From Escherichia coli (lineage in GTDB: Bacteria > Pseudomonadota > Gammaproteobacteria > Enterobacterales > Enterobacteriaceae), in the NCBI RefSeq assembly GCF_013122565.1, contig NZ_CP053258.1: a stretch of DNA of 64,000 bases. One strand, given 5' to 3'. The notes under the pieces are model-generated. The model was not told the origin of the DNA and did no database searches. It was given only the letters and a program-made list of their open reading frames with translations. The position numbers and the translations under genes are program-made. Positions 3,746-37,548 of the stretch are shown one piece after another (positions within the stretch are counted from its first letter, which is position 1; each line of letters begins with the position of its first letter).

Positions 3746-5128
3746 ATGAAGAGTGAAGTGTTGTCCGTTAAAGAGAAAATTGGTTATGGCATGGGAGACG
3801 CCGCCAGCCACATTATTTTCGATAACGTAATGTTATATATGATGTTCTTTTATACCGATATTTTTGGCATTCCTGCCGGATTTGTCGGAACTATGTTTTT
3901 GGTCGCTCGTGCACTGGATGCGATTTCCGATCCTTGCATGGGGTTGTTGGCCGATCGAACGCGCTCTCGCTGGGGTAAATTTCGTCCGTGGGTACTGTTT
4001 GGCGCACTGCCATTCGGGATCGTCTGTGTACTGGCCTATAGCACGCCAGATCTCAGTATGAACGGAAAAATGATTTATGCAGCAATTACTTACACCCTAC
4101 TTACCTTACTTTATACCGTCGTCAATATCCCTTACTGCGCATTGGGTGGTGTAATCACCAATGACCCGACTCAGCGTATCTCGCTGCAATCCTGGCGTTT
4201 TGTGCTGGCGACCGCGGGAGGCATGCTTTCTACTGTTCTGATGATGCCACTGGTTAATTTAATTGGTGGTGATAATAAACCACTCGGTTTCCAGGGCGGT
4301 ATCGCGGTCCTTTCCGTGGTGGCATTTATGATGCTGGCATTTTGTTTCTTCACCACTAAAGAACGCGTTGAAGCACCACCTACAACGACGTCTATGCGGG
4401 AAGATTTACGTGATATCTGGCAAAACGACCAGTGGCGGATTGTCGGTTTACTAACCATTTTCAATATCCTGGCGGTGTGCGTACGCGGTGGAGCGATGAT
4501 GTATTACGTCACATGGATTTTGGGTACGCCGGAAGTGTTTGTCGCTTTTCTCACCACTTATTGCGTGGGTAACCTGATTGGTTCCGCACTGGCAAAACCG
4601 CTGACCGACTGGAAATGTAAAGTCACTATCTTCTGGTGGACGAACGCCCTGCTCGCAGTGATTAGCATCGCGATGTTCTTTGTTCCCATGCAGGCCAGCA
4701 TCACTATGTTTGTCTTCATCTTCGTGATTGGTGTGTTGCATCAACTGGTGACACCTATCCAGTGGGTAATGATGTCCGATACCGTCGACTACGGCGAGTG
4801 GTGCAATGGTAAACGCCTGACCGGGATCAGTTTTGCTGGCACGCTGTTTGTGCTCAAACTGGGGTTGGCCTTCGGCGGCGCTCTTATCGGCTGGATGCTG
4901 GCTTATGGCGGATATGATGCGGCAGAAAAAGCGCAGAACAGCGCCACGATTAGCATCATTATCGCGCTATTCACGATTGTTCCGGCGATCTGTTATTTGC
5001 TGAGCGCGATTATCGCTAAACGCTACTACTCACTCACGACGCACAATCTGAAAACCGTTATGGAACAGCTGGCTCAGGGTAAACGCCGTTGCCAGCAACA
5101 ATTCACCTCTCAAGAAGTGCAGAACTAA
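3746..5128 (+). CDS. yicJ: MFS glycoside-pentoside-hexuronide:cation symporter family transporter
   Basis: ORF with multiple TM segments; ATG at 3746 gives 460 aa (K-12 YicJ length); immediately upstream of yicI. Confidence 0.85.
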   Translation: MKSEVLSVKEKIGYGMGDAASHIIFDNVMLYMMFFYTDIFGIPAGFVGTMFLVARALDAISDPCMGLLADRTRSRWGKFRPWVLFGALPFGIVCVLAYSTPDLSMNGKMIYAAITYTLLTLLYTVVNIPYCALGGVITNDPTQRISLQSWRFVLATAGGMLSTVLMMPLVNLIGGDNKPLGFQGGIAVLSVVAFMMLAFCFFTTKERVEAPPTTTSMREDLRDIWQNDQWRIVGLLTIFNILAVCVRGGAMMYYVTWILGTPEVFVAFLTTYCVGNLIGSALAKPLTDWKCKVTIFWWTNALLAVISIAMFFVPMQASITMFVFIFVIGVLHQLVTPIQWVMMSDTVDYGEWCNGKRLTGISFAGTLFVLKLGLAFGGALIGWMLAYGGYDAAEKAQNSATISIIIALFTIVPAICYLLSAIIAKRYYSLTTHNLKTVMEQLAQGKRRCQQQFTSQEVQN

Positions 5129-18277: not shown

Positions 18278-20666
<2,389 letters not shown>

Positions 20667-20956
20667 GGTTCTCTCCCTAAAAATCTGTCTGGCAGGGTAG
20701 CGATTTGTGCGTATTGTCACGATTGAGATTTTTTAAGGTGAGAGGAAATTGATAACTTGTAGTTATGTGAAATCGCTATTTTCTGTAGCGGAGATGCATT
20801 CATCTGACTTCTTGTCTGAGAAAATGCATAAGAAAAAATAGGTTAAAACTGAGGGGGGAAAAGAAAGGTGCAATGTTTAGCCATTGTGTTCACTGCACCT
20901 GGACCTTGGCTTACGCATCGGGTGTCTCAATCAACAAAAAGAGTTTTTCGTTTCTG

Positions 20957-21781
20957 CTATTTCTTCTCTGTAATTTTTACACTGTTTTCCAACTGCTTGA
21001 TGCTGACCTGCGGGGTCGGCAACTCCTCAGGCATGGTTCCGCCAAGTTCCTGAATGGTTTGCCTCACCTTGCTACCCACGTCAAAGTGTGTGGTATTAGC
21101 TTGCTGTTTTGAATTCACGCCATCCCGCTTGAGTTTTTCTTCTGTTTGGGTAGCTCGAAAGAGATTAGCCGCCAGTTCTGTTGAACCCATATGATCCAGG
21201 ATCTTCTGACTCTTTTTCAGCCCCTTCCGTTGATGAATAGCTTTCTGATCTAATCCACCATACAGCCCCCGGTAACCATGATTCTGAAATATGGCGAAAT
21301 CGATAGCTGTCGCTACCCCAGCTTGCTGCGCTGCCTCAACCAATTGTTTGTTATGTTCTTTCAATTCATTTCTCAGAAAAAGACGCTTTTCGTCTTCACG
21401 AAGTTGCCTGAAAGCTTCATCGTCAGCCAGCTCCTGCCGTCGGGTCTGGATAGCAAAATAAGTTTGCCCTGCCGCAATAACCGGTTTCGCAGGGTCGCCG
21501 TTTTGTACTACCAGGTAACAGGCATAGCGGGAGAGATGAACATCTTCAAGTTCTCGTTGAGCCCCTGAACCTAATACAACCATTTTGGTGGTTTCAACGA
21601 AATGGTCAGATGCAGCTTGATTGCTAGCTTTGCACGCTTGAGTCGCGCGGGTCAGTACCTTTTGAAAATTGCGCCAGTCCCGATAATTCAGTAACGGTGC
21701 CAATTCTCTCGCTGACCAAAATTCTTGCCCTTCAGTGCCATAATGCCGTATCTCTTCAAAAGGTTGATGATGTTCGTTCAT
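20957..21781 (-). CDS. dinD: DNA-damage-inducible protein D
   Basis: ATG at 21781 gives 274 aa; LexA box in its upstream region. Confidence 0.8.
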   Translation of the reverse strand: MNEHHQPFEEIRHYGTEGQEFWSARELAPLLNYRDWRNFQKVLTRATQACKASNQAASDHFVETTKMVVLGSGAQRELEDVHLSRYACYLVVQNGDPAKPVIAAGQTYFAIQTRRQELADDEAFRQLREDEKRLFLRNELKEHNKQLVEAAQQAGVATAIDFAIFQNHGYRGLYGGLDQKAIHQRKGLKKSQKILDHMGSTELAANLFRATQTEEKLKRDGVNSKQQANTTHFDVGSKVRQTIQELGGTMPEELPTPQVSIKQLENSVKITEKK

Positions 21782-21824
21782 TGCCCACTCCATGTGATAT
21801 CGATTGCAAAGAAAGTAAATCTGT

Positions 21825-21844
21825 AACTGTATTTATATACAGTT
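21825..21844. promoter_or_regulatory. LexA operator (SOS box) upstream of dinD
   Basis: aaCTGTatttatatACAGtt fits CTGT-N8-ACAG; an extra CTGT half-site lies just 5' (21821-21824). Confidence 0.7.
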
Positions 21845-22001
21845 ATGAGTATCTCACGTTCTCAGTGTGCTGGGCAAAAAGACATCGCAAAATCTGGAGC
21901 AGGCACGCAAAACAGAATTGAAGTTGCGGGGAAGAAAAATGCCGCTCTGTTTGAGTGGGCGGCATTTGTGAAGGCTGAAAAGTAAGAATTGGCGTTACGA
22001 G

Positions 22002-22865
22002 TTATTCAATGTTCTGAATCTGCTCGCGCATCTGCTCAATCAACACTTTCAGCTCAATCGCGGAGTTTGTCACTTCGGCATTGATAGACTTCGACGCAAG
22101 AGTGTTCGACTCGCGGTTGAACTCCTGCATCATAAAGTCCAGACGACGACCAACGGCTTCTTTTTTCTTCAGAATGTTGTACGTCTCTTTAACATGCGCT
22201 TCGAGGCGGTCCAGTTCTTCGGCAACGTCAATTCGTTGTGCCAGCAGAACCAACTCCTGCTCCAGACGGTTGTTTTCCAACTGCACCTGAGCATCTTCCA
22301 GCTTCGCGACCAGACGTTCACGCTGCCATTGCAGGATTTCCGGCATATGGGCGCGGACTTTAACTACTTCGGCGGTGACGCCTTCCAGACGCTGCTCAAT
22401 CAACGCTTTCAGCGCCTGACCTTCGGTTTCGCGTGCGACAATAAAGTCGTCCAGCGTACCATCCAGCGCCGCGAGAATTTCAGCGGCAATGGCGTCGAGA
22501 TCTTGCTCCTGGGCCGCCATCACGCCCGGCCAACGGAGAATATCAACTGGGTTGATTTCCCCTTCGTCACTCTGCATTTTTACCCAGTTCGCGGCAGTTA
22601 CCAGCTGTTTAGCCAGTTTTTCGTTGAGGATCAGCTCACCTTGCGCGCTAACATCTGGCTCATAGCGCAGGGTACATTCCACTTTACCGCGCGTCAGGCG
22701 AGAACGAATACGCTCGCGAACGACAGGTTCAAGGCTACGGAACTGCTCCGGCAGACGAAAGTAAGTTTCCAGATAACGCTGGTTTACCGAGCGCATTTCC
22801 CAGGTTGCGCTCCCCCATTCACCCTTGATTTCACGCCGGGCGTAGGCGGTCATACTGCGGATCAT
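22002..22865 (-). CDS. yicC: YicC-family stress-induced protein
   Basis: 287-aa ORF, same length as K-12 YicC. Confidence 0.85.
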   Translation of the reverse strand: MIRSMTAYARREIKGEWGSATWEMRSVNQRYLETYFRLPEQFRSLEPVVRERIRSRLTRGKVECTLRYEPDVSAQGELILNEKLAKQLVTAANWVKMQSDEGEINPVDILRWPGVMAAQEQDLDAIAAEILAALDGTLDDFIVARETEGQALKALIEQRLEGVTAEVVKVRAHMPEILQWQRERLVAKLEDAQVQLENNRLEQELVLLAQRIDVAEELDRLEAHVKETYNILKKKEAVGRRLDFMMQEFNRESNTLASKSINAEVTNSAIELKVLIEQMREQIQNIE

Positions 22866-37509: not shown

Positions 37510-37548
37510 AACTGGGAAACTATAAAGTAATGATATAAGGGTAGCATT

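Follow-up and report, generated by a model that had tools for sequence, protein, structure and literature searches.

In the SOS system, a promoter is kept repressed by a LexA dimer on the palindromic box and is freed when RecA stimulates LexA to cleave itself. The dinD (pcsA) operator of Escherichia coli is already known and well characterised, and the promoter is a textbook SOS promoter. The K-12 site is printed as ACAACTGTATATAAATACAGTTACA in Table 4 of PMC3009722, where RT-qPCR on lexA(Def) and lexA(Ind-) mutants also showed the expression of dinD to be LexA-dependent. A heterology index (HI) of 2.2, a 9.8-fold induction by AZT and a 12-fold dependence on lexA or LexA cleavage have been reported for the gene (PMC11228462), and under ciprofloxacin its log2 induction reached up to 4.5 (PMC11002266). 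It is included in a list of genes with known SOS boxes (PMC6590174), and dinD-lacZ fusions are a standard SOS reporter (PMC5350276). The operators of umuDC, sbmC, tisB/istR and recN (box 1) likewise consist of CTGT-N8-ACAG with a TA-rich spacer, have an HI of about 2 and are single, promoter-proximal boxes. The dinD box differs from high-affinity SOS operators in its outer positions, which read AA...TT where the consensus reads TA...TA, and dinD, unlike recA or uvrA, is missing from some E. coli.

The window, which is the whole stretch of DNA analysed here (64,000 nucleotides), is E. coli chromosome with the genes ligB (+), yicG (-), dinD (-), yicC (-), rph (+) and pyrE (+). The features discussed below are, in window coordinates:

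20957-21781, minus strand: dinD coding sequence, 274 aa, the target gene of the operator (RefSeq annotation of homologous loci)
21788-21791, minus strand: GGAG Shine-Dalgarno sequence, 6 nt before the ATG at 21781, read from the sequence
21821-21824, no strand assigned: additional CTGT of the first-pass annotation, judged not to be a functional part
21825-21844, minus strand: dinD LexA operator (SOS box), AACTGTATTTATATACAGTT as the window reads and AACTGTATATAAATACAGTT on the dinD strand
21827-21830, no strand assigned: CTGT arm, LexA half-site, invariant in seven E. coli strains and in both alleles
21831-21838, no strand assigned: 8-bp AT-rich spacer ATTTATAT, intact here and the exact ISKox3 target-site duplication in other strains (filled versus empty sites)
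21839-21842, no strand assigned: ACAG arm, LexA half-site, invariant in the same strains and alleles
21848-21856, minus strand: predicted extended -10 element TGaGATACT (GATACT 21853-21848, TG 21856-21855), from a relaxed sigma-70 scan, invariant in seven strains
21872-21877, minus strand: predicted -35 element TTGCCC, 18 nt from the -10 element, same scan, invariant in seven strains
21935-21965, minus strand: probable yicC terminator hairpin, ATGCCGC...GCGGCAT followed by a T-run, read from the sequence

The segment 21821-21844 reads CTGTAACTGTATTTATATACAGTT. Within it, positions 21827-21842 form the 16-bp palindrome CTGT-N8-ACAG without a mismatch (CTGTATTTATATACAG), and the dinD ATG at 21781 lies 43 nt from the box, close to the distance of about 45 bp given in the first-pass annotation. 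The 20-mer at 21825-21844 is identical, letter for letter, to the K-12 dinD SOS box of PMC3009722, the comparison by which the first-pass annotation had proposed to check its call. The agreement with K-12 extends to the order yicC-dinD-yicG-ligB, to the distance from the ATG and to the flanking candidate promoter hexamers. Two bases differ from K-12-like strains. One, at window 21845, adjoins the 5' end of the box as read on the dinD strand, with T here and C there; as the window reads, this is a private A beside the 20-mer, with G in the other strains compared. The other lies upstream of the -35 element. Neither difference is expected to have a functional consequence.

The site was scored with an HI matrix built from 17 other E. 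coli SOS boxes in Table 4 of PMC3009722, dinD being left out. With this leave-one-out matrix the dinD box reached an HI of 2.95, or 25.8 bits, and ranked best of about 128,000 window positions (runner-up 10.07; window mean 36.1, standard deviation 5.7). The lowest HI in 200 dinucleotide-preserving shuffles was 5.56, and none reached 5 or less. A LexA-repressed gene generally needs an HI below 15 (PMC11002266). The low matrix score that would have spoken against an SOS box was thus not obtained, and the description of the site in the first-pass annotation as a near-consensus SOS box upstream of dinD is borne out by both the HI and the identity to the K-12 operator. Its further claim, that the box marks an SOS-regulated promoter, is supported by the published lexA-dependent expression with an identical K-12 box (PMC3009722, PMC11228462).

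The palindrome might be taken for a mere AT-rich promoter element or a chance match to which LexA does not bind. AT-rich palindromes are common near promoters, and the bare pattern CTGT-N8-ACAG, which occurs twice in the 64 kb against 0.55 occurrences expected, was found at least twice in 9 of 100 window shuffles, as in the real sequence. The count of the bare pattern alone is therefore weak evidence for an SOS box. The score of the full 20-mer, however, lies far beyond the shuffle distribution, and the same sequence is an operator with published LexA-dependent regulation, which leaves a chance palindrome with practically no probability. From its sequence, 21825-21844 is almost certainly the single high-affinity LexA operator of E. 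coli dinD.

The second-best LexA-like site of the window, TACTTTATAGTTTCCCAGTT at 37510-37529 (minus strand; HI 10.07), is without CTGT and ACAG arms. It lies within a 40-bp AT-rich gap with two co-directional ORFs on either side and is probably a chance match.

The gene assignment and the start codon were examined separately. DinD matches the NCBIfam equivalog NF008573 over residues 1-274 with 502.3 bits (cut-off 242), and a Bro-N domain (PF02498, 3e-11) is located at its N terminus. The dinD call, which the first-pass annotation had considered to be supported by the box, is confirmed by this match and by the RefSeq homologues, which are dinD. A GGAG sequence is present before the ATG at 21781 and absent before the in-frame ATG at 21793, which supports the annotated start; a true start elsewhere, named in the first-pass annotation as grounds for doubt, was not found.

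A strict promoter and terminator scan of 21600-22100, with at least 9 of 12 matches demanded, reported nothing. The best sigma-70 candidate of the relaxed scan, TTGCCC-18-TGaGATACT, has weak hexamers (8 of 12 matches), and its -10 end lies 4 nt upstream of the box. On the basis of this placement of the -35 and -10 elements, transcription is predicted to start near 21841, inside the box, and LexA would then cover about -3 to +17. Upstream, the yicC hairpin was missed by the automatic scan because its loop is longer than 8 nt; this hairpin is the probable upstream limit of the dinD control region. No RNA family was detected at E of 1 or lower in an Rfam scan of 20600-22200.

A mechanism of the usual SOS type would fit this arrangement. 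In undamaged cells, a LexA dimer would occupy CTGT-N8-ACAG at 21827-21842. The box, set 4 nt beyond the probable extended -10 element, would cover the predicted start, and bound LexA would block RNA polymerase. After DNA damage, RecA on single-stranded DNA would stimulate self-cleavage of LexA, the operator would empty and dinD would be transcribed. Tight repression and a large induction ratio are proposed to follow from the closeness of the box to the consensus. DinD itself is cited in PMC4849656, with reference to Uranga 2011, among the proteins that ensure the removal of RecA filaments from DNA. By itself the box is of little consequence: it adds confirmation of the dinD call, and fusions to this promoter have been used for decades as DNA-damage reporters.

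The first-pass annotation had also drawn attention to an additional CTGT half-site just beside the box. The tetramer is present at 21821-21824, only 2 nt from the box, and is kept in the common allele A described below, so that a composite operator could be imagined in which it serves as a third half-site or as part of a second, overlapping LexA dimer site. There is no second box, however: the 20-mer that makes use of the extra CTGT (21819-21838) has an HI of 24-26, which is the background level, and a tetramer of this kind is expected by chance within 8 nt of about 10% of sites. In allele B the extra CTGT is lost, GTAG or GTAA standing in its place, and the true arms are unchanged. A composite operator is accordingly very unlikely, and this part of the first-pass annotation does not hold beyond the presence of the four letters.

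It was further considered that the box might control a divergent transcript on the plus strand, instead of or besides dinD. A 46-aa ORF (21845-21985) begins at the base directly after the box, and the annotation of one genome, ET490, lists it as a hypothetical protein. The ATG, however, comes from a private substitution, and the other strains compared have GTG at this place. In the K-12-like and KE47 alleles, the frame is broken by one-base indels. No Pfam family matches the ORF, which crosses the yicC terminator hairpin, and no plus-strand promoter was found in the strict scan of 21600-22100. Control of such a transcript is most improbable, and the ORF was rejected as a gene on account of its private ATG, the indels and the lack of a family match. 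A single operator that serves dinD is retained as the reading of the box.

Two forms of the operator region are found among complete E. coli genomes. Allele A, which is that of the window and of K-12, was matched exactly over 60 nt around the box in 3,418 of 5,426 genomes. Allele B falls in the 90-95% identity band (948 genomes); its box reads AACTGTATATAAACACAGTTGTAG and has an HI of 3.3. The two alleles differ at 5-6 of the 60 positions. In the seven E. coli strains compared, both arms of the box, the candidate promoter hexamers and the TG are invariant. Over the 1.2 kb of 20900-22100, no complete RefSeq E. coli genome exceeds 98.9% identity to the window.

The 60-nt operator region was undetectable in 722 of the 5,426 complete genomes. 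In strain APEC17, yicG adjoins yicC, and dinD, its promoter, the box and a different yicC terminator are missing (L005:5700-6030 compared with window 20721-22001). The gene is accessory in E. coli.

Several E. coli strains carry prophage or island DNA that separates the dinD control region from the 3' end of yicC; this 3' end looks like an integration site. The inserted DNA carries genes for PerC, ImmA/IrrE, a DNA ejection protein, DUF927 and toprim proteins, and was located at:

L004:6900-13109: prophage or island DNA by yicC
L003:8400-12939: prophage or island DNA by yicC
L094 and L095, about 4500-4850: prophage or island DNA by yicC

The box itself is interrupted in other strains. In ET490, a 1,316-bp ISKox3 element (ISL3 family; NF033550, 322 bits) is inserted at the centre of the dinD box. 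An 8-bp duplication, ATTTATAT, borders the element at dinD on both sides and equals the spacer of the box exactly; in a carrier of allele B the duplication is GTTTATAT. The sites compared were:

L003:6933-8264, L094-L097 and L093: dinD sites filled by ISKox3
Window 21831-21838: corresponding empty site

The junction between ISKox3 and dinD was found in 226 of the 5,426 complete E. coli genomes. The flanks of the carriers differ at up to 140 positions in 1.85 kb. Four of the five ISKox3 copies compared differ from one another by 0-3 nt, and the variant of carrier A20 shows 27 differences. A single clonal insertion at dinD was rejected in view of the diverged flanks, the near-identical IS copies and the allele-B duplication GTTTATAT; these comparisons point to repeated independent insertions.

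The occurrence of ISKox3 at SOS boxes in general was studied with a 38-nt end of the element, for which exact matches were sought in metagenome and viral (IMG/VR) contigs; the scan yielded 38 distinct insertion sites (L098-L137). The target logo over these sites is TACTGT-N8-ACAGTA, which is the LexA consensus. Upstream of the element, every one of the 38 sites has G at -10; T stands at -9 in 37 and at -11 in 36, C stands at -12 in 33, and CTGT is complete at -12 to -9 in 31. Both ends were available at 19 sites, and in 18 of them a matching 8-bp duplication was followed by ACAG. Reconstructed targets have HI values of 0.4-6.9, with one at 13.2. The genes beside the sites encode UmuD/HumD, DinI-family proteins, 79-aa prophage proteins and DinD. 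In addition, the chromosomal umuDC operator carries ISKox3 in 48 complete E. coli genomes (H108-H115). Natural carriers include strains 165 and ET490 for dinD and CREC-544 for umuD. Taken from these alignments, the 8-bp spacers of SOS boxes, that of dinD included, are very probably a preferred integration target of ISKox3.

A LexA box is rebuilt at neither junction, so that each insertion would remove LexA control. A strict rule for the orientation of ISKox3 relative to the SOS gene was rejected, both orientations being found. In contig L104 (4648-4737), a flank from the umuD side is joined to one from the dinD side and the duplications do not match, which points to a rearrangement involving two ISKox3 copies.

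Homing of the element would use either a direct reading of the palindrome or docking on bound LexA. Other elements with specific targets include IS1397 and ISKpn1, which insert in REP/BIME repeats, IS30, which has palindromic hot spots, and Tn7, which inserts at attTn7. Like these, ISKox3 is selective, inserting at a single short palindromic motif and making a duplication of fixed length; unlike them, its motif is the operator of a global repressor, LexA. The term SOS-box-targeting insertion sequence is proposed here as a class for ISKox3 and does not denote an established family. ISKox3 is best known from blaNDM-carrying IncX3 plasmids. In the literature searched, which included 81 papers that mention ISKox3, no description of a link between ISKox3 or ISL3 and SOS boxes was found. 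Insertions of ISKox3 in capsule genes under selection have been reported, with the AT-rich duplications ATACATAT, TTATAATT and ATTTGTAA (PMC12057282), and the preference for SOS boxes may therefore not be absolute.

If the preference is real, ISKox3 could release from SOS control dinD, umuDC (which encodes error-prone polymerase V) and the antirepressor genes of prophages. In clinical Enterobacterales, its homing would then be relevant to mutation rates and to the induction of prophages. A transposon that targets the binding site of a regulator would also be unusual, and here an IS would home to the operators of a global stress repressor.

Homologues of DinD number more than 588, counted with one genome per species. 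The best 80 of these loci (L010-L089) were examined; they are 64-82% identical and come from many phyla, with one archaeal MAG among them. Only two of the best 80 loci, those of Citrobacter werkmanii and Paraburkholderia madseniana, have a strong gamma-type LexA box in the 300 bp upstream, and a LexA box as a family-wide trait of DinD was rejected on this count. In Pseudocitrobacter, Providencia and Morganella (L010, L013 and L021, about 2200-2515), dinD directly follows yicC as in E. coli, and a LexA box is absent from the intergenic region.

Genes of type I restriction-modification systems are frequent neighbours. Within 2.5 kb of the homologue, HsdM was found in 44 and HsdS in 42 of the best 80 loci, and HsdR in several. 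DinD corresponds to the defence candidate PDC-S13 in PADLOC, where a model for a DinD-HsdS fusion is also present, and a gene with a dinD domain within a type I restriction-modification locus has been mentioned (PMC9881135). Because few homologues have the box while many are situated in type I restriction-modification loci, LexA control of dinD looks like a lineage-specific addition to a mobile, restriction-modification-associated gene.

The two exceptions resemble E. coli in having a strong box 26-89 nt upstream of the DinD homologue (HI 4.3-4.6), and differ from E. coli dinD in the sequence of the box and in the locus. In C. werkmanii, dinD follows ibpB, is placed between ibpB and yidE and has its own box, CACTGTAAAAATATCCAGTA (HI 4.6; L020:2430-2495). 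At the same locus in Klebsiella pneumoniae strain 176, the box is a decayed CAGTTTAAAAAACAATCATA and dinD is a pseudogene truncated after 131 aa (L007:2900-3400). The boxes of C. werkmanii and P. madseniana look like separate gains of LexA control and not like inheritance.

The name DNA damage-inducible protein D has been spread by annotation to hundreds of homologues. Since most of these belong to type I restriction-modification loci that lack a LexA box, the term DNA damage-inducible probably misdescribes the majority of them.

Several database records that match the dinD region call for comment. The record for Campylobacter phage A11a (MG065691.1, marked UNVERIFIED; L008) holds the E. coli yicC-dinD segment with the box, nearly identical to that of K-12-like strains. 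Its match at 84% identity was set aside as uninformative because the record is unverified and includes chromosomal DNA of E. coli; contamination or a chimeric assembly is probable. The PLSDB plasmid records NZ_CP141089.1, CP125156.1 and NZ_OL790696.1 are of chromosome size (4.8-5.4 Mb), and their matches are chromosomal loci.
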